NCBI GenBank assembly: GCA_963826535.1
Contig: CAWGXL010000010.1
Location: 170,814 to 234,813, forward strand
Direction of reading: 5' to 3'
Length of the DNA: 64,000 nt
Source: an uncultured bacterium
Lineage (GTDB): Bacteria > Patescibacteriota > Microgenomatia > Levybacterales > UBA12049
A program made the translations under genes and the position numbers. The notes below the pieces were generated by a model, which saw only the letters and a list, made by a program, of their open reading frames with translations, made no database searches and was not told where the DNA came from. Positions 29,358 through 41,567 of the stretch are shown here, in pieces; within the stretch, counting starts at the first letter, position 1, and every line of letters begins with the position of its first letter.

Positions 29358-30116
29358 CTATAATTTATTTACCGGAGTAAACCTCGTAAATATAATCATA
29401 TGTAGATATCTTACGACATCCCGCCTAAAGCTCACTTTTTTACCCTCAGAATATCCTCTGGACACATATTTTATTGGAACTTCCAACGGTAAGTATCCAA
29501 GTCTGACAAACTTACATACAATTTCCCAATCAAGTTCAAAATATTCACCTCGCAAATGCACTTTCTTTAGTAATTCACTCTTAAACACTTTATACATGGT
29601 AGTCGGATCGGTTAAGCGAGTACCATAAAGTAAATTAAAAAAAGTATGAAAAAAAATGGCACCAAAATTCATAAAATGAGCAATATATCTCTCTTTACCT
29701 TTAAAACGCCTTATCAGCCATCTTATATCTCCATTTTGTTGTAAATGTCTTGAACCTAATACAAATGATGCTTCCCCTTTAATTATTGGCCTTATTAATG
29801 TATCATAATCATTAACATCATATTCCAAATCCGCGTCTTGAATTAGTACAATATCCCCGGTAATCTCTTTAAGACCCCTTCTAACTGCGCTACCCTTACC
29901 TCTAGCTTTTACTTGGAGAATTAATTTTACATCTGATTTATTCTTAGTAAATTCTTTTACAATTTCTCTTGTGCCATCATTACTATTATCTTCAACTAAT
30001 ATTAATTCTTTGGTAACTCCGGGAATTTTATGCCTATAGACGTTTTTTAATAATGTAAGCACTGTTCTGGACTCATTATAGATAGGAATGACAATAGACA
30101 ATGTATATTTCTTCAT
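29358..30116 (-). CDS. polyprenol-phosphate sugar synthase (GT2, Dpm1-like)
   Basis: 252 aa. LSIVIPIYNESRTV..LVEDNSNDGT..IQDADLEYD. Confidence 0.7.
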   Translation of the reverse strand: MKKYTLSIVIPIYNESRTVLTLLKNVYRHKIPGVTKELILVEDNSNDGTREIVKEFTKNKSDVKLILQVKARGKGSAVRRGLKEITGDIVLIQDADLEYDVNDYDTLIRPIIKGEASFVLGSRHLQQNGDIRWLIRRFKGKERYIAHFMNFGAIFFHTFFNLLYGTRLTDPTTMYKVFKSELLKKVHLRGEYFELDWEIVCKFVRLGYLPLEVPIKYVSRGYSEGKKVSFRRDVVRYLHMIIFTRFTPVNKL

Positions 30117-30335: not shown

Positions 30336-31784
30336 TTAATTTGGTTCAAACGTTCTTTCTTTATTATATAAACTAAAACACCGGCTAAGGTCGTTATGAA
30401 AACCATTTTGGCAGTTTAAGTTAATAGCTAATAATGAAGTCCACAAAATTAGTATACATACAAAAATGATTATAAAGGCTTTGATTAAGGGTGTAGTTTT
30501 AGATGCATAGTATTTCCAAAAATATGTAAATCCTATGAAAGCTAAAATACATAATGCAAAATAAAAATCCTGATAGTAACGTCGTGCGTATCCCATTAAA
30601 GATAGCCCATAGATAGAAACTAATATCATAACTAAAAAAATAAATACTACAAATTCCAGCCTTTTTCCTTTTAACTTATTTTTTGTGATATAAACAGGAA
30701 TATAAAATATGAATAAAAGCAGAGGTGATGAAAAAAATACTGAAGATGTAAATTCAACGTCTACTAATTTAGGATAAGCTCCTACTAACCATTCCGGAGC
30801 ATCATAGAAAACATAAGGATTTGTTAATGAAGTTCGGGGGAAAAATGCTGTTAATTGAACAATGTTTAAAAGCAAATAATTTATGGAGCTAGTTTTATTT
30901 GTTAATATTCTGGTTTTTAGTTCCATAATACTAGGGTTTACATATTGTGTACCAAACTCGAAAGGATTATCAAACCGAGCCATATTGTAATGCATAAAAA
31001 TTAAACATCCAATCAAGATTGGCAAAATTAAAATACTAATTGAAAACCAAGTTTTATAGATTAAAGCACTAGAGATTTTTTGTTTTAGACTTTTATATTC
31101 ACTATAGATAATAAAAAGTAAATAAGGAAAAACAGATAATATGAGGTTTGCACGAGAAAAAAAACTTAACGTCAAAAATAGGCCGGCTAGTAATAAAAAT
31201 AAGTTTTTTTTAACTGCGTTAATTTTATCACGCTCATAAACTTTTAAAAATATAACTAATGACAAAAGAAGTAAAGTTGAACCAAAAATAATAGCTGTTT
31301 CATATACTAAATTACGCGATGATAAAAAGTACAACGAACCTAGTGCATAAATTACAAGAAAAATTAATTTTATTAGCTTAAATTCTGTTTTATTTTTATT
31401 TAATTTCAAAAATCCTGCTGTTTGTTGTAATAAAAAATAAAATAATAATAAATTAGCAGAAGATAAAAATAACGATAAAAATTGAAATGTAACCTCAATG
31501 TGGAATATATTCTTAATAATGAGCCAGGTACTTGCAGGAAGTGGCCCAAAGTAAAGATAATTTGTATGGTTGTAAAATGACCAGTCTGCGCCCGGACTAT
31601 CAGAAGGTATTCCGTATTGACCCTTTTCAAAAGCTATGGCTAATTGCTTATAATATGTACCTTGATTATAATCTTCAAATCTAAAGGTACCTTCTGTCAT
31701 ATCGTGCGCATAAATTAAGGTAAATAAAAATACTAATATAATTACAAGAATTAACTCACGATATTTTGTAAAATTGACAAACAT
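30336..31784 (-). CDS. polytopic membrane protein, candidate GT-C glycosyltransferase
   Basis: 482 aa, about 12 TM. N-terminal periplasmic loop containing FEDYNQGTYYKQLAIAFEKGQYGIP. Confidence 0.4.
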   Translation of the reverse strand: MFVNFTKYRELILVIILVFLFTLIYAHDMTEGTFRFEDYNQGTYYKQLAIAFEKGQYGIPSDSPGADWSFYNHTNYLYFGPLPASTWLIIKNIFHIEVTFQFLSLFLSSANLLLFYFLLQQTAGFLKLNKNKTEFKLIKLIFLVIYALGSLYFLSSRNLVYETAIIFGSTLLLLSLVIFLKVYERDKINAVKKNLFLLLAGLFLTLSFFSRANLILSVFPYLLFIIYSEYKSLKQKISSALIYKTWFSISILILPILIGCLIFMHYNMARFDNPFEFGTQYVNPSIMELKTRILTNKTSSINYLLLNIVQLTAFFPRTSLTNPYVFYDAPEWLVGAYPKLVDVEFTSSVFFSSPLLLFIFYIPVYITKNKLKGKRLEFVVFIFLVMILVSIYGLSLMGYARRYYQDFYFALCILAFIGFTYFWKYYASKTTPLIKAFIIIFVCILILWTSLLAINLNCQNGFHNDLSRCFSLYNKERTFEPN

Positions 31785-32971: not shown

Positions 32972-34144
32972 ATGGATACACTTAAAAATCAATTAAATAA
33001 ACTTTGGCACAAATTTTATAATAAAGATTTAAGTGAAAATTATTCATTTTACAAAAAAACAAATGATTATACGATCAATTATAATAAAAAAGAAGTTTAC
33101 CGTGAATCAATTCAACATGTTGAAGCAGTTTGTAAGTTATTGAGAGTACCAATAATTCTATGGCTGATCTGGGCTATTAGTGTTTTAGAAGCATCCCCGA
33201 AAAGGAATCCAATGTCACTACCACTTGCGAAGCGTTTAAGATTATTTAAACAAGCTCATAGAATTACGATTGCTAAATACATTCCTAAACCTCAAGAATT
33301 TAATATAAAGACTGATAAATGCCCGAACTGCGACAAAATTTATTTTAAAAAGCCAATATATAAAGTTACCCCTTTTAGAACAATTGCTGTAATGTTTTGC
33401 AAAAATTGCGGATTAGGCATCCGTTTTCCTGCAGACACGAAAGAAGCATTGTCCAAAATATATGAAGAAGACTATTTTTCAGGAAACTCAACCGACGTTG
33501 GATATTTCGATTATTTAGCCGAAGAAGGTTGGAGAATCAAAAAAGCAGAAAACTATCTAAATAAACTTGAGGAATTACTAAATATATCACCCAAGAATAC
33601 CAAAGTTTTAGATTTAGGATCAGGCTATGGTTACTTCTTGATCCCCTTAAAAAAACGAAATTATTCCTACCTTGGTATAGAACTGGCACAGGAAGCAGTT
33701 GATATAGCTAACAATAAGTATAAAACATTAACCATAAAAGGTGATCTCTTAAATTTAGACAAAGAAAAAAAACTAAAAGACAAAAGCTATGATCTTATCA
33801 CACTGTGGGATATTATTGAACATTTCTATGATTTTCGTAATGAACTAAAAATAATTAATAAATTACTTAATCCGGGTGGTTTTGTTGCTCTGAGAACAAA
33901 TAATATAAATAGTATAGAATATGATGTGTTTGGAAAAGATTTTCACTCAATAAAAAATGAGCACACATATTACTATTCTGAAAAAACACTTAGTGATATC
34001 TTTCAACACGTAAAAATTAAGACATATAAAATCTGGACCCATACACATTTATTTTTATGTTTTATGACTCAAAAAGAAATTGAAAAAATTAACAAAGAAA
34101 ATAGGGGAGGCGATATTTTTTATATTGGTCAGAAATATGAATAA
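32972..34144 (+). CDS. SAM-dependent methyltransferase with CxxC...CxxC zinc-ribbon segment
   Basis: Motif I VLDLGSGYGYF and LITLWDIIEHF. A KCPNCDK...CKNCG Zn-ribbon precedes the MTase core. Confidence 0.65.
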   Translation: MDTLKNQLNKLWHKFYNKDLSENYSFYKKTNDYTINYNKKEVYRESIQHVEAVCKLLRVPIILWLIWAISVLEASPKRNPMSLPLAKRLRLFKQAHRITIAKYIPKPQEFNIKTDKCPNCDKIYFKKPIYKVTPFRTIAVMFCKNCGLGIRFPADTKEALSKIYEEDYFSGNSTDVGYFDYLAEEGWRIKKAENYLNKLEELLNISPKNTKVLDLGSGYGYFLIPLKKRNYSYLGIELAQEAVDIANNKYKTLTIKGDLLNLDKEKKLKDKSYDLITLWDIIEHFYDFRNELKIINKLLNPGGFVALRTNNINSIEYDVFGKDFHSIKNEHTYYYSEKTLSDIFQHVKIKTYKIWTHTHLFLCFMTQKEIEKINKENRGGDIFYIGQKYE

Positions 34145-35132
34145 AGTAGGCGTTTCAATTATGGGAGCAGGATTGATTGGAAAAAAACGTGCTGAAGCGC
34201 TTTTAAAAATTCCAAATTCAACATTACGCTACATTTATGATATCAATAAAGTAGCCTCAAAAACATTCGCAAAGCAATATAAATCCAAAGTCGCTGAAAA
34301 TATCGATGAAATTTTAAGTGATCAGAAAACTAATTTAGTTATCATCGCGATTCGACATAAAGATGCAGCCGCCTTAGCTCCTTCCGTATTAAAAAAGAAG
34401 AATGTACTTATTGAAAAGCCAATTGGCCGGAACCTTTCGGAGACGAGAAAAATTATCAATGCAGCGAAACGATATAATACCAAATTATTTGCCGGATTTA
34501 ATTACCGCTACTATCCGCACTTACAAAAAGCATTGTCATTTATAAAACACAAAAAGTTAGGCCAAATAATTTCCTCCACATTTAAAATTGGTCATGCTGC
34601 ATTCCCCGGATATGAAAAGACGTGGAAAATGGATAAAGATTTATGTGGTGGTGGCGTTTTCCTTGATCCTGGTGTGCATATGCTTGATTTAATGCAATTA
34701 TTACATGGAAAGCCAGAAACACTCGATGCGTTTAGCAATAGAATTGGATGGAAAAGCAAAGTTGAAGAAGAAGCATTCTTAGTTTTTACTTTTTCCGATA
34801 AAACAATTTCCGAGCATCATTATAGTTTAAACTTAGCCAAAAATACTTTTATGATTGAATTAATAGGTACGAAAGGCACTCTGACTCTTTCTGGTAGAGG
34901 AGGTAATTATGGACCAATGCGGTTAGTTTATATACCCCGTTGGTTTTGGCAGCCGGATAGCGATAAAATAATTGAGGAAGATTACGGTATAGTAGACCAA
35001 TCTTTTTACTTTGAATTAAAATCTATTATAAACGATATCATTGCCAACAAGAAACAAGAATCTATTTTCCCAGAATTTCTCAGTGTAATGAAACTAATTG
35101 ACACGATTTATAATTCCCCCAACAAATCCTGA
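34137..35132 (+). CDS. Gfo/Idh/MocA family oxidoreductase
   Basis: The start is taken at the ATG overlapping the upstream stop (MNKVGVSIMGAGLIGKKRA). It is a paralog of 38386..39378. Confidence 0.75.
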   Translation: MNKVGVSIMGAGLIGKKRAEALLKIPNSTLRYIYDINKVASKTFAKQYKSKVAENIDEILSDQKTNLVIIAIRHKDAAALAPSVLKKKNVLIEKPIGRNLSETRKIINAAKRYNTKLFAGFNYRYYPHLQKALSFIKHKKLGQIISSTFKIGHAAFPGYEKTWKMDKDLCGGGVFLDPGVHMLDLMQLLHGKPETLDAFSNRIGWKSKVEEEAFLVFTFSDKTISEHHYSLNLAKNTFMIELIGTKGTLTLSGRGGNYGPMRLVYIPRWFWQPDSDKIIEEDYGIVDQSFYFELKSIINDIIANKKQESIFPEFLSVMKLIDTIYNSPNKS

Positions 35133-36052
35133 GCGGTTTTTTCGACTGCCGTTTTTGTCGTAAATTTTCGTTTCCACCCAAGTTTTATAAGCGCATCACC
35201 ATTTAACCTAACTATTGGAACATCACCTTTCCAACCTACTTTACCGCCCGTATATTTTAAATTGACATTCTTAAGACCCATCGTTTTGATAATTACACGT
35301 GCAATTTCAGTAACAGTTAAGAAATCAGTTGAAGTTAAGTTATATAAATTAATCGGCAAATTACTTTTTTCCCAGACTAATAGAAATGCATCCAATACAT
35401 CGTCAATATAGAGATAAGACTTACTCTGCTCACCGTCTCCAAGTATTTTTAACTGTTTGGGATTACTTCGCAATTTTTTAATAAAGTCAAATATAACCCC
35501 GTGAGTTGAATGAGGGCCAATTATATTAGCTGGCCGCATAATCCATGCCCGCATGTCATATAAATGTACAAAAGCAGAAATAAATGCTTCAGCCGATAAT
35601 TTTGTTGCTCCATACATTGATACAGGAAATAATGGGCCAAAAGTCTCGTCCGTATAGACCTCCCCGACATCCCCATATACGCCACTTCCGGACGTAAAAA
35701 AAATCTTTCTTATTTTTTTCTCCCTCATGGCATCTAACAGATTATATGTAGCCATTGTAGTATTTTTATAATCAACACTGGTGTCCGTTGCACCTATAGA
35801 AATATCTGAATTTGCTGCGAGATGAAAAACGGTATCAATGGTATGAGGCGTTGCATTAAATAGTTTTTTTTTATCCAGTAAATTTAATTGAACAAAAGAA
35901 AACTTCGGATTTTTTAAATAAGGCTTAAGATACTCTATTCGGCCTAAAGATAAATTATCAAAAACAATTATTTCATAACCCTTTTTAATCAAACGTTTTA
36001 TCAATAGTGATCCGATAAATCCAGCCCCACCCGTAATTAAAATCTTTTTCAT
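35108..36052 (-). CDS. NAD-dependent epimerase/dehydratase
   Basis: KILITGGAGFIGSLL and YGATK. It is a paralog of 36427..37371. Confidence 0.8.
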   Translation of the reverse strand: MKKILITGGAGFIGSLLIKRLIKKGYEIIVFDNLSLGRIEYLKPYLKNPKFSFVQLNLLDKKKLFNATPHTIDTVFHLAANSDISIGATDTSVDYKNTTMATYNLLDAMREKKIRKIFFTSGSGVYGDVGEVYTDETFGPLFPVSMYGATKLSAEAFISAFVHLYDMRAWIMRPANIIGPHSTHGVIFDFIKKLRSNPKQLKILGDGEQSKSYLYIDDVLDAFLLVWEKSNLPINLYNLTSTDFLTVTEIARVIIKTMGLKNVNLKYTGGKVGWKGDVPIVRLNGDALIKLGWKRKFTTKTAVEKTAQDLLGEL

Positions 36053-36064
36053 AAATACCCTAAT

Positions 36065-36430
36065 TTACCTCGTTATCAAAATAACTCCCACAAGGATAAC
36101 AAATATCCCTGCGACCTTAGTAGCTGTAATAGGTTCTTTGAACAAAAAATAAGACAATATAAGTATAAATACATAACCCATACTCATCAGCGGCGCAGCA
36201 GCACTAAGTTGGACCTTATTAAGAATCAACACCCACAATATAAATCCCAGCCCAAAAACAGCCAAACCCCCAACGAGGAACCAATTTGTTACTAATTTAA
36301 ACGCGAATGGAAAAACTTCTACAAAATCATGCGGCAATGTTCCTATTTTATTTGCCCCGGTTTTAATCAGCATATTAGCAGTAGTATTTAATAATGCAGC
36401 AACAATAACTAGTAAGTAATAAGGGTTCAT
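36065..36430 (-). CDS. small 4-TM SMR/EamA-like membrane protein, putative polyprenol-P-sugar flippase (ArnE/ArnF/GtrA-like)
   Basis: 121 aa, four hydrophobic helices. ATGA coupling with the upstream epimerase. It sits among ArnC-like and ArnT-like genes. Confidence 0.5.
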   Translation of the reverse strand: MNPYYLLVIVAALLNTTANMLIKTGANKIGTLPHDFVEVFPFAFKLVTNWFLVGGLAVFGLGFILWVLILNKVQLSAAAPLMSMGYVFILILSYFLFKEPITATKVAGIFVILVGVILITR

Positions 36431-37371
36431 ATGATTTTATTATCTAAAACATAGTGTACAGTTTTTGCTATACCTTCCTCAATAGTCAAAGTAGGTTTCC
36501 AGCCAAGTTTACTTAACTTTTTAATCCCTAATTGAACAAACTCGTTGTCCCCCTTCCAATTACTCGCCTTTCCCAACCATTTCTTCTTAACATTTTTATA
36601 ACCGCTCGCATGCAAGATTGCATCAATAATCTGATTGACAGTTAGCACTTGAGTGTGCCCGATATTATAAACATTAAACTGTTCCTTGGATTTTTTTATA
36701 ACCGTAAATATAGCCTCAACTCCATCATTAACATAAAGCGAAGACTTTTTTGGTGTTCCATCCGAAAAAAGCTCCAGTGACTTATTATTTTTCTTGAGTT
36801 TTTTTAAAACGTCAACTATTATTCCGTGAGTATATCTTTCTCCAATGAAAGAAACAAACCGGAAAATAAAACTTGTCATGCCATAATATGAAGCGTAAGT
36901 ACGTATATAAGTTTCACATGCGGCCTTGGTTGCTCCATAAAGCGAGGTCGGTTCAAACGGATAATCTTCAGGAGTTGGATGAATCTTGGCATCACCATAG
37001 ACAGATGAACTTGATGAGAAAGCCATCCTTTTTACATTATTTTTGCACATTGCTTCCAATACATTTTGCGTCATTTCAAGATTTTGTTCATGATCGATAA
37101 AGTGATCATTGAATCCCGAGCGGACATCTGCGTGAGCAGCTAAATGAAAAACAAAGTCAACATTCCTCATTATTTTATTAAGCAAGTCAGTATCTTTAAG
37201 ATCACCCTTTACAAGTTTATAATTTGAATTATTCAGAATGTGTTTTACAAATAATTCTCTTCCAGTAGAGAAATTATCATAAACAATAACTTTATTTTTT
37301 TCTTTAAGAAGCCTGTCAACAATATGACTTCCAATAAATCCTGCCCCACCTGTAACTAATACCGTTTTCAT
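36427..37371 (-). CDS. NAD-dependent epimerase/dehydratase
   Basis: KTVLVTGGAGFIGSHIV and YGATK. Tandem paralog of 35108..36052. Confidence 0.8.
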   Translation of the reverse strand: MKTVLVTGGAGFIGSHIVDRLLKEKNKVIVYDNFSTGRELFVKHILNNSNYKLVKGDLKDTDLLNKIMRNVDFVFHLAAHADVRSGFNDHFIDHEQNLEMTQNVLEAMCKNNVKRMAFSSSSSVYGDAKIHPTPEDYPFEPTSLYGATKAACETYIRTYASYYGMTSFIFRFVSFIGERYTHGIIVDVLKKLKKNNKSLELFSDGTPKKSSLYVNDGVEAIFTVIKKSKEQFNVYNIGHTQVLTVNQIIDAILHASGYKNVKKKWLGKASNWKGDNEFVQLGIKKLSKLGWKPTLTIEEGIAKTVHYVLDNKII

Positions 37372-37600
37372 AAATGCCCTAATTTTCTTTGTTATCGAAA
37401 TAACCCCATGTGTATAGAAAATATCTCCTCTACAATAATAAATGTAATAAGAATTAATTTGTTACTAGTTTAAACCTGAACGGATCAACTTCTATAATAT
37501 CATAGGGGACAACTCTTAACTTATTTACTCTTTTTTTAACCATGTATGCGATTGAATTCAAAAATACCGCAACTATTTTTAATAGATTATTTAATTTCAT
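37372..37600 (-). pseudogene. decayed second copy of the small flippase-like gene (internal deletion plus premature stop)
   Basis: Reverse translation gives MKLNNLLKIVAVFLNSIAYMVKKRVNKLRVVPYDIIEVDPFRFKLVTN*, matching MNPYYLLVIVAALLNTTANMLIKTGANKIGTLPHDFVEVFPFAFKLVTN of 36065..36430. The 3' end (37372-37410) matches the C-terminus and gene junction of copy 1 (36053-36090). The middle ~140 bp is missing. Confidence 0.7.
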
Positions 37601-38343
37601 AATTTCTTTACCACATTCACAATAGATATTCCGACTGGGAATGTTGCGAATCTCTGAACAGAATTTTCAAGTAATTCATAATAGTACAATATTTCATTTA
37701 AAATAGGATGTGTTGAAGCAGAATCCATTTTCAAATCTGCCACCCCATCTTTTTTGGTTGCGTATTTATGAAGAAATTTAAATAAAAAATAAAGTGTAAA
37801 ATCAACATTTTTCTCGGTAAGGACCTTTAGGCCTGCCAATTTGGCGATTTTGGCAAGTTGTTTTTTTTTGTAACGTCTAAAATGTTCTAATCTTATATCC
37901 CGTGTTGACCAAAGATTTTGATGAGCAGGTACAAGAAATATTCCAATTCCTCCCGTTTTCAATACTCTATGTATTTCCTTAATGGCTTTTAGGTCATCTT
38001 GCACGTGTTCTATCACATCGATTGCTGTGATTAAATCAAAACTATTATCCTTAAAGGGAATAATTTTGCCATTAAATAGAAAAGCATTTTTTACACCACG
38101 CATTTTAGTAAATTTAATAGCATCACTCGAAGTATCAATTCCAAACGTTTGATCACTGGTAATTTTTTTTGCAAACTCATTCTGCAGTGTTCCGGTTCCA
38201 CACCCAAAGTCAAGCATCTTAGTTTTATTATAATGCGGATTTCTAAACTGTTCCCATAATTGCAATATTAGCCCCCGTTTAGCCCGGGCGCGCCATTCGT
38301 CTTCATCTAGTTTATAACGTAAATCATAAAAATGTTTTTGCAT
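37597..38343 (-). CDS. class I SAM-dependent methyltransferase
   Basis: Motif I MLDFGCGTGTL, and DLITAIDVIEHV. Confidence 0.75.
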   Translation of the reverse strand: MQKHFYDLRYKLDEDEWRARAKRGLILQLWEQFRNPHYNKTKMLDFGCGTGTLQNEFAKKITSDQTFGIDTSSDAIKFTKMRGVKNAFLFNGKIIPFKDNSFDLITAIDVIEHVQDDLKAIKEIHRVLKTGGIGIFLVPAHQNLWSTRDIRLEHFRRYKKKQLAKIAKLAGLKVLTEKNVDFTLYFLFKFLHKYATKKDGVADLKMDSASTHPILNEILYYYELLENSVQRFATFPVGISIVNVVKKL

Positions 38344-38385
38344 ATACTCTTAACTTATATAAAATTAAGCTTTACCTGACCTAGT

Positions 38386-39378
38386 TTAATTTTTATTTAA
38401 TTTATATAATGTATCTATAACTTTCATTACCTTCAATGCGTCTCTAATTAAAGTAGGCGAGTAGTCTTTTTTTATAATTTTATCAATAAAAATTTTATTC
38501 TCTGTCTCCCACGATAAATCATTCTCTGGGAATACAAACTCTTCTGTATCAGGCGGCCCCATCTCTGGCTTCATTTTATAAAAAGTAAGTTTTTCACGGC
38601 CGTAACTCCCTCCCAATCCGTCTATTTGAATCTTCGCAGTTTTTAACATAATCTCAAAAGAAAAAATATTTTTCCATTCCACGCAACTAACACTCAAATG
38701 CGCTATTTGATTTTTTTTATTTTTCAATATAAAAAAAGCAGAATCTTCCAAATCGGATTTCCAAAAAAGCCTTTCGGTAAAGCCAATTATAGTATCCATT
38801 GTACCGCAAAAATAATTTGTAAGATCTATCAAATGCGGACCTTGATCCATAAGCTCTCCTCCACCCGAAATATTTTTTTTAAACCTCCACTCTCTCTCGT
38901 AACCCAACCTTCCTCCGTGCCCATAACGCGCCCTGATAAATAATAACTCCCCATATTTTTTTGAATCAACCAATTCTTTCGCTTTAATAAACGCCGGATG
39001 ATATCGGTGATTATATCCAAACATAACGACAACAGGACTCTTTTTATGAGCATTACTAATATTTTTCAATTCAGAAATACTTATTCCACCAGGTTTCTCA
39101 ACCAACACATGTTTACCATTGGTGACTGCCTCTGCCGCAATCGGAGCAAGCCAATTATTTGTAGTAGAAATGATGACCGCCCGGATCTTAGAATCAGTTA
39201 TAACTTTCCTCCAGTCAGACTCATAGGTGCACTTGAACTCTTTTGCAAATTGCAATCCTCGCGTAGTGTCTACATCGCATATTAAAGATAAATTTGAAGA
39301 TTTTGGGAGCACCTTTGCTCTTTTCCTGCCAATTAGTCCGGCTCCGATTATAGCGACATTAATATTCTTGACTGTCAT
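38386..39378 (-). CDS. Gfo/Idh/MocA family oxidoreductase
   Basis: NINVAIIGAGLIGRKRA N-terminal Rossmann fold. 330 aa. Confidence 0.75.
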   Translation of the reverse strand: MTVKNINVAIIGAGLIGRKRAKVLPKSSNLSLICDVDTTRGLQFAKEFKCTYESDWRKVITDSKIRAVIISTTNNWLAPIAAEAVTNGKHVLVEKPGGISISELKNISNAHKKSPVVVMFGYNHRYHPAFIKAKELVDSKKYGELLFIRARYGHGGRLGYEREWRFKKNISGGGELMDQGPHLIDLTNYFCGTMDTIIGFTERLFWKSDLEDSAFFILKNKKNQIAHLSVSCVEWKNIFSFEIMLKTAKIQIDGLGGSYGREKLTFYKMKPEMGPPDTEEFVFPENDLSWETENKIFIDKIIKKDYSPTLIRDALKVMKVIDTLYKLNKN

Positions 39379-39436
39379 TGCATGATAAACTATATTTCAA
39401 TTATAATAGAAAACATCATTTAACCCAATAAGGAAT

Positions 39437-40288
39437 ATGAATGTACTTACAGGCAAAACAGCATTAATTACCGGCGGAGCTCGTGGAATTGGAAAAGCAA
39501 TAGCAAGGCAATTTTTAGAAGATGGCGCTCTGGTATTGATTTGCTCAAGAAAAAAAGAAGAACTGGAAAAAACATGTAAAGAATTGGATCCATCGGGAAA
39601 AAAGTTATTTTATTTTGTAGCTGACATTTCCGTATACAACGACTGCGAAAACCTTTTTAATTACTCTCTAAAAATATTCAAAAAACTGGATATTTTAGTA
39701 AACAATGCGGGAGTCTACGGGCCAATTGGTCTACTCGTTGAAAACTCGCCGTCTGAATGGGTAAAAACAATTCACATAAACTTACTTGGTGCAGTTTATT
39801 GTACGAAACTAGCTCTTCCACAAATGAAGAAACAAAAAAAAGGCAAAATCATCAATCTCGCGGGAGCCGGCGTTGGGGGACAAAATCCTCTAAGTAGGTT
39901 TTCAGCATATTACACGTCCAAAGCCGGAATCGCAGCATTTACAGAAGTTATTGCCTCAGAAGTTAGTGAAGATAATATTCAAGTTAATTGTATTTCTCCC
40001 GGTGCAATAAACACTTATTTTATAGATTACCTTCTTTCTCAAGATCCAAAAAATGCAGGCCCAATGTATAAACAAGCGCTTGTTACAAAACGGACAGGCG
40101 GAGATTCTCCCGGCTCTGCAACCAAATTAGTCTCCTTCTTAGCCTCAGACGTAAGTAAAAACGTAACAGGAAAAATTTTGAGTGCAAAATGGGATAAAAT
40201 TGAATTATTAAAAAAATTAAATAAAAAAAACAAGAACTTGTTTACATTAAGAAGAATAGATGAGGAGCTTTTCAGTGAAAAAAAATAA
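39437..40288 (+). CDS. SDR family oxidoreductase
   Basis: TGGARGIGKAIA, NNAG and a YTSKAGI (YxxxK) motif. Confidence 0.8.
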   Translation: MNVLTGKTALITGGARGIGKAIARQFLEDGALVLICSRKKEELEKTCKELDPSGKKLFYFVADISVYNDCENLFNYSLKIFKKLDILVNNAGVYGPIGLLVENSPSEWVKTIHINLLGAVYCTKLALPQMKKQKKGKIINLAGAGVGGQNPLSRFSAYYTSKAGIAAFTEVIASEVSEDNIQVNCISPGAINTYFIDYLLSQDPKNAGPMYKQALVTKRTGGDSPGSATKLVSFLASDVSKNVTGKILSAKWDKIELLKKLNKKNKNLFTLRRIDEELFSEKK

Positions 40289-41567
40289 TAAAGTCGGAGT
40301 TCTCGGTCTTTGGCATTTAGGTACAGTTTATTCTGCTTGTCTTGCAAAACTTGGATTTAGTGTTACAGGTTGGGATATTGATCTGGAAATAATTAATAAT
40401 CTCAAAAAGGGTTTGCCGCCCATAGAGGAACCCCGGCTCAAGGAAACCATAAATGAATTTCTGAATAGAAAACTTGATTTTGTAAGTAAACCAAAGGAAG
40501 CAATTAGTAACAAAAAATACTTATTTATCACTTTTGACGTACCGGTTGACAATAACGATAAAATAAATTTAACCATCATTGATAAAACTTTCAGTTTAAT
40601 CAGTAAATATATCTCGCCCCAAACCACTATAGTTATTTCCAGTCAATTACCTCTAGGATATTCAAGAAAGGGACTAGAATTAATCAAAAAAAAAGAACCT
40701 ACAATTAATGTAATTTATTTACCTGAAAATTTAAGATTAGGGACGGCATTTGAAAGTTTCCTAAAACCGGACAGAATAATAATTGGTTCGAGCGATAAAA
40801 AAATACTAGACATGTTTGAAAAAGATTTCGATTCTCTTAAGTGCCCTTTTATAAAGATCGGCCTGGAAAGCGCTGAAATGGTAAAACATTCACTAAATAG
40901 TTACCTGGCAATGATGATAAGCTTTAGTAGCGAAATAGGGGATCTATGTGAATTATTAGGCGCCAATATGGAAGAAGTAGTAACCGCTCTTAAAACAGAA
41001 AGAAGAATTAGCCCTTATGCACCGCTCAATCCAGGATTAGGTTTTGCTGGTGGCACATTAGGAAGAGATATTCAAACGTTGAGAAGATTAGGCAAAAAAA
41101 AAGGTTACAATTCATTATTGTTAGACTCGATTTATAAAGTAAATCAAAATCGCCTGCCCAACTTAGTAAAAAAAATAAAAACAACCCTCGTTTCTTTAAA
41201 AGAAAAAAAGATTGGTATACTTGGTCTGACCTACAAGCCCAACACGAATACACTTAGGAGATCAATGTCTTTAGAGCTCGCAAATATGTTAAGAATAGAA
41301 GGAGCATTAATTACAGCCTATGACCCCATGATAAAAGAACAGATAGAGAAATTTCATTTTATAAAAATCAAAAAAACAGAGAGTGATTTCTTTAAAGGCC
41401 TTGATCTAATTGTACTTATGACAGAATGGGCGGAATTTAAAAAAATAAATTGGAATGATAATTCCAAATTAATGAAGAATAGATTTATAATTGACACAAA
41501 AAACTTTATTGACACAAAAATACTTGACAAAAATAAAATTAAATATAGCCGGATAGGAATTTCGTAA
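40260..41567 (+). CDS. nucleotide-sugar 6-dehydrogenase (UDP-glucose/GDP-mannose dehydrogenase family)
   Basis: N-terminal KVGVLGLWHLGTVYSACLA Rossmann fold and a C-terminal GLTYKPNTNTLRRS motif. The start codon is ambiguous (40260 ATG or 40275 GTG). Confidence 0.8.
   Translation: MRSFSVKKNNKVGVLGLWHLGTVYSACLAKLGFSVTGWDIDLEIINNLKKGLPPIEEPRLKETINEFLNRKLDFVSKPKEAISNKKYLFITFDVPVDNNDKINLTIIDKTFSLISKYISPQTTIVISSQLPLGYSRKGLELIKKKEPTINVIYLPENLRLGTAFESFLKPDRIIIGSSDKKILDMFEKDFDSLKCPFIKIGLESAEMVKHSLNSYLAMMISFSSEIGDLCELLGANMEEVVTALKTERRISPYAPLNPGLGFAGGTLGRDIQTLRRLGKKKGYNSLLLDSIYKVNQNRLPNLVKKIKTTLVSLKEKKIGILGLTYKPNTNTLRRSMSLELANMLRIEGALITAYDPMIKEQIEKFHFIKIKKTESDFFKGLDLIVLMTEWAEFKKINWNDNSKLMKNRFIIDTKNFIDTKILDKNKIKYSRIGIS

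Follow-up and report, generated by a model that had tools for sequence, protein, structure and literature searches.

A degraded duplicate of a small EamA-type membrane protein gene next to an epimerase gene with a hybrid start in a putative sugar cluster of Patescibacteria

The stretch of DNA analysed here, hereafter the window, comprises 64,000 nucleotides (34% G+C) from an uncultured bacterium of the Patescibacteriota (contig CAWGXL010000010.1, positions 170,814 to 234,813 of the forward strand). On its minus strand lie, in the order in which they are read, a gene for a Gfo-type oxidoreductase (Gfo2), a methyltransferase gene (MT2), a 48-codon open reading frame (ORF), an epimerase gene (epi2), a small gene for a protein with four transmembrane (TM) segments (small1) and a second epimerase gene (epi1) (Table 1). 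Overlaps of the ATGA type join the stop codon of MT2 to the ATG of the 48-codon ORF and the stop codon of epi2 to the ATG of small1. An earlier reading of this DNA, made from its letters alone and called here the sequence-only reading, had given epi1, small1 and epi2 the limits listed in Table 1, with which our assignment agrees, and had interpreted the region as the tandem duplication of a module of an epimerase and a small flippase. We found that the segment from 37372 to 37600, between MT2 and epi2, is a degraded duplicate of small1, an ordinary pseudogene, and that the epimerase genes on its two sides were not duplicated with it.

Table 1. Genes and sequence features from epi1 to Gfo2 (positions in the window)
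Feature	Position	Strand	Description
epi1	35108..36052	-	Intact NAD-dependent epimerase/dehydratase, 314 aa; Pfam Epimerase, E=2.9e-50
small1-epi1 spacer, 12 nt	36053..36064	-	Coding-strand sequence ATTAGGGTATTT; contains the likely ribosome-binding site of epi1
small1	36065..36430	-	Intact 121-aa, 4-TM protein of the EamA/DMT type, ArnF/ArnE-like; ancestral position
epi2	36427..37371	-	Intact NAD-dependent epimerase/dehydratase, 314 aa; Pfam Epimerase, E=1.4e-51
Chimeric 5' end of epi2, first 14 codons	37330..37371	-	epi1-type start MKTVLVTGG
Copied spacer	37372..37383	-	ATTAGGGCATTT; now directly upstream of the epi2 start codon
Pseudogene 3' tail	37384..37428	-	Counterpart of the C-terminal half of TM4, in another frame than the 5' part; AAA in place of the stop TAA
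Deletion scar	37429..37453	-	About 25 nt, against about 170 nt (TM2-TM3) in small1
Pseudogene 5' part, 48-codon ORF	37454..37600	-	TM1 and loop 1; TAA where small1 has TGG
MT2	37597..38343	-	Intact class I S-adenosylmethionine-dependent methyltransferase, 248 aa; Pfam Methyltransf_11/23
Gfo2	38386..39378	-	Gfo/Idh/MocA oxidoreductase (Pfam); left edge of the insertion, adjoins epi2 in relatives

A remnant of small1 between MT2 and epi2

The homology between small1 and the segment upstream of epi2 was detected by several methods. A repeat finder returned two pairs of repeats, 36278-36369 with 37451-37542 (72% identity over 92 nt, offset 1173) and 36011-36088 with 37330-37407 (83% identity over 78 nt, offset 1319); the two offsets differ by 146, and the second copy has thus suffered a net loss of 146 nt. 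In blastn, the 5' block had E=7e-10 and the 3' junction block E=4.6e-25. In a gap-tolerant local alignment the score was 111, as against 44 +/- 4 for shuffled sequences (maximum 59, n=300; z about 17), showing identity well beyond chance. Using small1 as the query, tblastn against the whole window recovered the remnant at 54.5% identity over 44 amino acids (E=3e-9) and detected no copy of the small gene other than small1 and the remnant.

The remnant is disabled in three ways: a stop codon comes too early, a deletion shifts the frame, and the original stop codon is gone. It keeps the 48 N-terminal codons, with a deletion of one codon after codon 20, and then, at the codon that aligns with W50 of small1, has TAA in place of TGG, a nonsense change. 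The net loss of 146 nt spans TM2 to TM3 and, since 146 is not a multiple of 3, leaves the tail out of frame; the tail also has an indel of 1 nt, and its original stop codon, TAA, now reads AAA. Only the first hydrophobic segment is left, and with one of the four TM segments the remnant cannot form a 4-TM transporter. In these respects the sequence-only reading was borne out: the segment is a decaying duplicate of the 4-TM gene that retains the first 48 codons and the nucleotides of the C-terminus and junction (the 83% block), about 140 internal bp are gone, and a stop codon was gained. Its further remark that the ATGA coupling is preserved holds for the start of the remnant, where ATGA does occur, but is loose in so far as the partner of the intact copy is epi2 and not a methyltransferase.

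Related loci, some of them from a scan of one genome per species, are labelled L001-L008 and L022-L027 (L023 is a metagenome contig). At none of these loci was a small gene present at the orthologous position upstream of epi2, which makes the remnant an extra copy. In the public annotation the 48-amino acid ORF stands as a protein. A word-based search with this peptide among 5.8 billion proteins returned only itself and revealed no intact close relative of the second copy, and a literature search on pseudogenes and duplication in Patescibacteria turned up nothing specific.

epi1 and epi2 are old paralogs

The proteins encoded by epi1 and epi2 are 40% identical, and the genes are 52% identical at the DNA level. 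Their third codon positions match at 0.39, which is near saturation for the base composition, whereas in the small-gene copy the corresponding value is 0.60. Each epimerase also has orthologs of its own. Those of epi2 are 65-81% identical and occur at 13 of the loci; in the one-genome-per-species scan, the orthologs at 65-80% came from genomes labelled Patescibacteria, Collierbacteria, Shapirobacteria, Roizmanbacteria and Daviesbacteria, and also from three metagenome-assembled genomes (MAGs) labelled Gammaproteobacteria or Pseudomonadales. Orthologs of epi1 were found at 73% identity in L023 (partial) and at 56-57% in L002 and L005. In neighbor-joining (NJ) trees, bootstrap support was 100% for the epi2 clade and 96% for the epi1 clade, and epi1 and epi2 of the window were sisters in none of 300 replicates. 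The separate ortholog sets, the separate clades and the saturated third positions together indicate that epi1 and epi2 are old, distinct paralogs and not recent duplicates. Being anciently diverged, they probably catalyse different steps, and they should not be regarded as redundant.

Divergence is therefore unequal across the apparent repeat, with 52% DNA identity for the epimerase genes and 67-83% for the parts of the small gene, and the small genes, unlike the epimerases, are mutual closest relatives (99% as against 0/300). The small-gene copy is far younger than the epimerase paralogy. The tandem duplication of an epimerase-flippase module proposed by the sequence-only reading is not supported by the alignment of the two epimerase genes and their trees.

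Three of the loci with epi2, L004, L007 and L008, are titled uncultured Gammaproteobacteria or Pseudomonadales. They carry a Microgenomates-like block in which SDR and UDP-glucose dehydrogenase-type (UGDH) genes precede Gfo2 and epi2 (epi2 66-69% identical); either their taxonomic labels look doubtful, or the block was horizontally transferred.

The window carries an insertion between Gfo2 and epi2

In L001-L004, L006-L008 and L022-L027, a Gfo2 ortholog (60-74% identical) is followed by epi2 after a gap of 0-155 nt. Neither a small gene nor MT2 was found between Gfo2 and epi2 in the 13 loci compared, relaxed tblastn searches included, and the long Gfo2-epi2 spacers of L022 and L026 held no traces of a small gene. 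Directly after epi2, a single small gene, 62-79% identical to small1, is present in L003 and L022-L027; the ATGA overlap between epi2 and the small gene recurs in L023, L024, L026 and L027, and in L023 the small gene is directly followed by epi1 (73%). Judging from these arrangements, the ancestral order would be Gfo2-epi2-small-(epi1), with one small gene.

What is specific to the lineage of the window is an insertion of about 1 kb (37372-38385) that holds MT2 and the small-gene copy. MT2 is of full length when compared with nine homologs (50-60% identity) and ends at the same alignment column as they do. In Microgenomates clusters, genes of the MT2 family are arranged as GT2-MT2-(~630-aa protein), with no adjoining small gene in the three contexts examined; given this usual arrangement, MT2 has moved. 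A comparison of the 3' end of MT2 with the 3' end of epi2, which could have revealed the trace of a replaced epi2, gave nothing above the AT-rich background, and a scan of metagenomes with MT2 for an intact MT2-small-epi2 arrangement returned only two distant matches (28-29% identity).

The SDR-UGDH pair of the window (39437-41567) is inverted relative to Gfo2-epi2, as it is in L022 and L026; in the more distant L001-L004, L006-L008, L024 and L027 the pair is co-directional with Gfo2-epi2. The inversion marks the subclade of the window, and because L022 and L026 have the inverted pair in common with the window and show the highest identities, they are the closest relatives found.

Two further features of these loci were observed. 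In L001 (Patescibacteria MAG JBBTSR010000002.1), a fragment of 96 nt (L001:1298-1393) lies before the transaldolase gene, on its upstream side, and matches the 3' end of the epi2 of the same locus (L001:6813-6908) at 88.5% identity. This fragment encodes 34 residues of the epi2 C-terminus; it is a second, independent relic of a partial duplication in the same cluster of a related genome. In addition, G+C-rich intergenic elements of about 70-110 nt (L022:7887-7986, L026:3273-3386 and L001:1909-1980), bounded by the inverted repeats TGTCAT(T/C)CC ... GGAATGACA, sit in spacers that flank epi2 or the transaldolase gene in the relatives. These elements look like miniature inverted-repeat transposable elements (MITE) or repetitive extragenic palindromes (REP). 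None is present in the Gfo2-epi2 interval of the window; elsewhere in the window the GGAATGACA motif occurs on its own, at 30085 and 51252.

The copy extends into epi2, which has a hybrid start

The homology between the two copies starts at about the ATG of the small gene and ends inside the epimerase gene. The tail, the spacer and the start of the epimerase gene up to codon 14 (36011-36088) are 83% identical; for the 63 nt that follow, the value falls to 57%. The copied spacer matches the small1-epi1 spacer at 11 of 12 positions, and the Gfo2-epi2 junction of the relatives is unrelated to it; in the 24 nt of the remnant tail that border on the spacer, identity to small1 is 79%. On these figures the copy would have spanned only about 0.4 kb, consisting of the small gene, the spacer behind it and the 5-14 codons with which epi1 begins.

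The protein sequences agree with this. All 13 epi2 orthologs start with MK[YC]xVTGG or a close variant, and the epi1 orthologs with MKK[IV]LITGG. The epi2 of the window starts with MKTVLVTGG, which has the length of the epi1 type, one residue more than in every epi2 ortholog, and then continues with the epi2-type sequence SHIVDRLLKE... An epi1-type start followed by epi2-type sequence means that the 5' end of epi2 is chimeric.

The tail and spacer together are conserved at 30 of 36 positions (P=0.002 if the expected identity is taken as the third-position value of 0.60). The simplest explanation is that the segment, which now directly precedes the start codon of epi2, has a role there; gene conversion could also account for the conservation.

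Age of the small-gene copy

The 5' 144 nt of the remnant are 67% identical to small1, as against 47-60% to the orthologs of small1, and the motif D..EV.PF.FKLVTN, in an otherwise hypervariable loop, is common to the remnant and small1 only. The two were sisters in 99% of NJ bootstraps (165 columns), inside the clade of small-gene orthologs. This sisterhood indicates that the copy is lineage-specific and arose after the split from L022, L023 and L026, long after epi1 and epi2 had diverged. Nei-Gojobori estimates for the remnant and small1 were about 1.16 for dS and 0.32 for dN, with dN/dS about 0.28; a rough three-taxon split, made on 48 codons with dS near saturation, assigned about 0.4 to the remnant branch and about 0.1 to small1. 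Identity between the two was 0.81 at second codon positions and 0.58 and 0.60 at the others. If the dS value is a guide, the copy would be old in absolute terms, and the dN/dS ratio together with the second positions suggests that it had a functional phase before it decayed.

small1 and its gene neighbourhood

The four hydrophobic segments of small1 are centred near residues 13, 60, 88 and 110 of 121, which fits the class of 4-TM proteins of about 110-130 amino acids. small1 exceeds the cut-off of the Pfam family EamA (39.8 bits against 28.2); its best NCBIfam matches, ArnF (E=1.4e-14, 54.6 against 99 bits) and ArnE (E=6.5e-8, 32.8 against 92 bits), stay below the equivalog cut-offs, with weak matches to EbrB and MdtJ besides. 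A sequence search of the PDB with small1 gave no match. From these profile scores, small1 appears to be a member of the EamA superfamily and not an ArnE/F equivalog, and by analogy it is most likely a flippase for a lipid-linked modified sugar. No side-by-side pair of different small subunits was seen: the small gene is single in the seven related loci in which it was found, and the second copy of the window is a pseudogene. With one small gene per relative, small1 presumably acts as a homodimer.

Around small1 lie genes for an enzyme of the UDP-glucose-6-dehydrogenase type, for an SDR, for two each of Gfo-type oxidoreductases, epimerases/dehydratases and methyltransferases, for GT2 enzymes that match models of polyprenyl-phosphate glycosyltransferases, and for a large membrane protein that may be of the GT-C type. 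A GT2 encoded at 29358-30116 matches the AglJ, dolichyl-phosphate hexose transferase and ArnC models, all below cut-off, and the 482-amino acid membrane protein (30336-31784) gave no more than a weak TMEM260-like match. From this gene content, the region may be a Patescibacteria (Microgenomates-like) cluster that makes a nucleotide sugar and moves the sugar over the membrane on a lipid carrier. A search of 34000-40000 against Rfam (E<=1) gave no match, and scans for promoters and terminators did not rise above shuffled sequences (20 promoter-like hits as against 21.3, and 2 terminator-like hits as against 2.7).

On the far side of epi1, the convergent Gfo1 (plus strand, ending at 35132) and epi1 (minus strand, ending at 35108) overlap by 25 nt at their 3' ends; the plus strand then has a terminator-like hairpin at 35133-35149. 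The window has two Gfo/methyltransferase pairs in opposite orientation, MT1-Gfo1 at 32972-35132 (+) and Gfo2-MT2 at 37597-39378 (-). Gfo1 is only about 30% identical to the Gfo2 orthologs, and MT1 and MT2 are distant from each other, indicating old paralogs and not a recent inverted duplication. The Gfo1-MT1-GT2b group beside epi1 is kept in L002.

Discussion

We conclude that MT2 and an extra copy of the small gene were probably inserted in the lineage of the window, that the copy subsequently decayed, and that the split of epi1 and epi2 is ancient. The course of events may have been as follows. In this lineage only, about 1 kb, consisting of an intact MT2 and a second small gene, would have been inserted between Gfo2 and epi2. 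The copy would have carried with it the spacer that leads from the small gene to epi1 and the first 5-14 codons of epi1, which were fused in frame to epi2 and now would serve as its start region. The extra small gene, being redundant, probably worked for a while and then would have decayed through the change from TGG to TAA, the frameshifting loss of 146 nt across TM2-TM3, small indels and the loss of the stop codon. The 3' tail and spacer (83%) would have been kept, most likely as the translation-initiation region of epi2.

Three routes to the present arrangement fit: the joining of the small gene, spacer and epi1 start to epi2 together with MT2, unequal crossing-over, and import from a close relative. 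All three predict the chimeric junction that is seen; they differ in their intermediates, none of which was found with the MT2 scan of metagenomes or the word search with the peptide. Unequal crossing-over between the 5' ends of epi1 and epi2 would have given Gfo2-epi2a-smallA-epi2b(chimeric)-smallB-epi1, after which MT2 replaced epi2a and smallA decayed. Such an event would create precisely the new junction that is seen in the chimeric epi1/epi2 start, the remnant is sister to small1 as it should be, and the ATGA at the start of the remnant resembles the epi2-small overlap. However, a second event is needed, in which epi2a was exchanged for MT2 exactly at the gene boundaries; the 42-nt Gfo2-MT2 spacer holds no trace of epi2a, the C-terminus of MT2 has its native length, and no intermediate genome was found, so that we regard this route as unlikely. 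In the case of import, an MT2-small-(epi1 start) segment would have recombined in from a closely related strain with the order Gfo2-MT2-small-epi1, and the remnant would be a xenolog. The clean junction between MT2 and the small gene would then have existed already in an operon, and one event would account for the insertion; genes of the MT2 family move between positions in these clusters, and the cluster order varies widely among relatives. Yet no small gene adjoined MT2 in the three contexts of that family, the metagenome scan produced only the two distant MT2 relatives at 28-29% identity, and the hypervariable loop motif of the remnant specifically matches the small1 of this genome; we think that import, too, is improbable.

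The remaining possibilities have still less in their favour. That a module of small gene and epimerase was duplicated in tandem to give remnant-epi2 and small1-epi1, with decay of the second small gene, is formally suggested by the repeated layout of small gene, 12-nt spacer and 314-amino acid epimerase, by the 83% identity over 78 nt at the junction and by the homology of the epimerases (40% at the amino acid level). This is nonetheless highly improbable and already contradicted, since other candidate phyla have separate orthologs of the two epimerases and the pair in the window were never sisters (0/300), the third positions of the epimerase genes are saturated (0.39 as against 0.60), relatives have epi2-small-epi1 without an upstream small gene, the remnant nests in the small-gene ortholog clade as the sister of small1, and nucleotide homology stops 5-14 codons into the epimerase. 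An assembly artefact, a mis-join or repeat collapse that produced an apparent remnant, comes to mind because the contig is metagenome-derived, but it is barely conceivable: copies that are 67-83% identical are too divergent for collapse or mis-joining, both flanks are syntenic with the relatives (Gfo2 on one side, epi2-small-epi1 on the other), nonsense changes of single codons and small indels are not what assembly errors leave behind, and the contig is 494 kb long. Alternatively, the 48-codon ORF could encode a functional single-TM micro-protein, translationally coupled to MT2 and acting, for example, as a modulator of the small1 dimer. It is open for 48 codons and overlaps MT2 through ATGA, its second codon positions are the best conserved, dN/dS relative to small1 is about 0.28, and it is publicly annotated as a protein. 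Still, we consider this very unlikely: the peptide found no homolog but itself among the 5.8 billion proteins, three of the four TM segments are lost, basic residues take the place of the conserved KTGANK loop region, and a low dN/dS is expected from a past functional phase and from constraint on the small1 branch. A wider form of the idea is that the relic is active in two ways: the MT2-coupled ORF would be translated into a single-TM peptide, and epi2 would have taken over the conserved tail and spacer as a leader with a ribosome-binding site that sets its expression. This is quite unlikely. If true, a decaying duplicate would have rewired the translation of an operon in a minimal-genome bacterium.

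Several points tell against the history that we prefer, a lineage-specific insertion followed by decay of the copy. The crossover can be placed only to the first 5-14 codons of epi2, because the DNA that encodes GxxGxxG is about 80% conserved among all these epimerases (hand-counted from the alignment). The junction between the MT2 stop codon and the ATG of the remnant is exact to the codon, which is surprisingly neat for a random insertion. The tree that joins the remnant to small1 has 165 nt only, and gene conversion in an older pair of paralogs could mimic a young sisterhood; likewise, the dN/dS estimate, from 48 codons with near-saturated dS, has wide error margins. Finally, the metagenome scan with MT2 and the word search with the peptide revealed no relative in which the second copy is intact or the arrangement is intermediate.

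No long-standing question hangs on the remnant, and the main value of the analysis lies in a corrected annotation and in the evolutionary reading of the locus. The 48-amino acid "hypothetical protein" of the public annotation is a fragment of a pseudogene, and the hybrid start of epi2 in this genome is also relevant to annotation. The new points are modest: a copy of the size of a gene, specific to the lineage, became fused to epi2, and epi2 now appears to use the tail of that copy as its leader. They illustrate that streamlined Patescibacteria genomes also carry relics of partial duplications in variable clusters for cell-surface glycans.

Comparison with known systems

The remnant resembles the bacterial pseudogenes that arise by decay of redundant duplicates in its homology to an intact neighbour, in its nonsense change, frameshifting deletion and lost stop codon, and in its absence from orthologous loci. 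It differs from them in that its tail, with the spacer and a few codons, appears to have been reused as the translation start region of epi2.

ArnE and ArnF (PmrL and PmrM) are the subunits of the undecaprenyl-phosphate-L-Ara4N flippase of E. coli and Salmonella. Like them, small1 is a 4-TM protein of about 120 amino acids of the EamA/DMT type, with ArnF and ArnE as its best NCBIfam matches, and its cluster follows an Arn-like logic, with a UDP-glucose dehydrogenase, SDR-type enzymes, a GT2 with weak matches to ArnC-type and polyprenyl-phosphate glycosyltransferases, and a large membrane protein that may be GT-C-like. In contrast to ArnE/ArnF, the relatives have one small gene and not a pair, and small1 scores below the equivalog cut-offs; relative to the Arn pathway, the cluster of the window adds methyltransferases and Gfo-type oxidoreductases.

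In the paired small multidrug transporters of the SMR type, such as EbrAB and MdtIJ, the heterodimers are built from the products of duplicated 4-TM genes. The duplication of such a small gene within one operon, as found here, is the raw material for heterodimeric pairs. Unlike EbrAB and MdtIJ, however, the second small-gene copy of the window is no partner subunit, three of its four TM segments having been lost.

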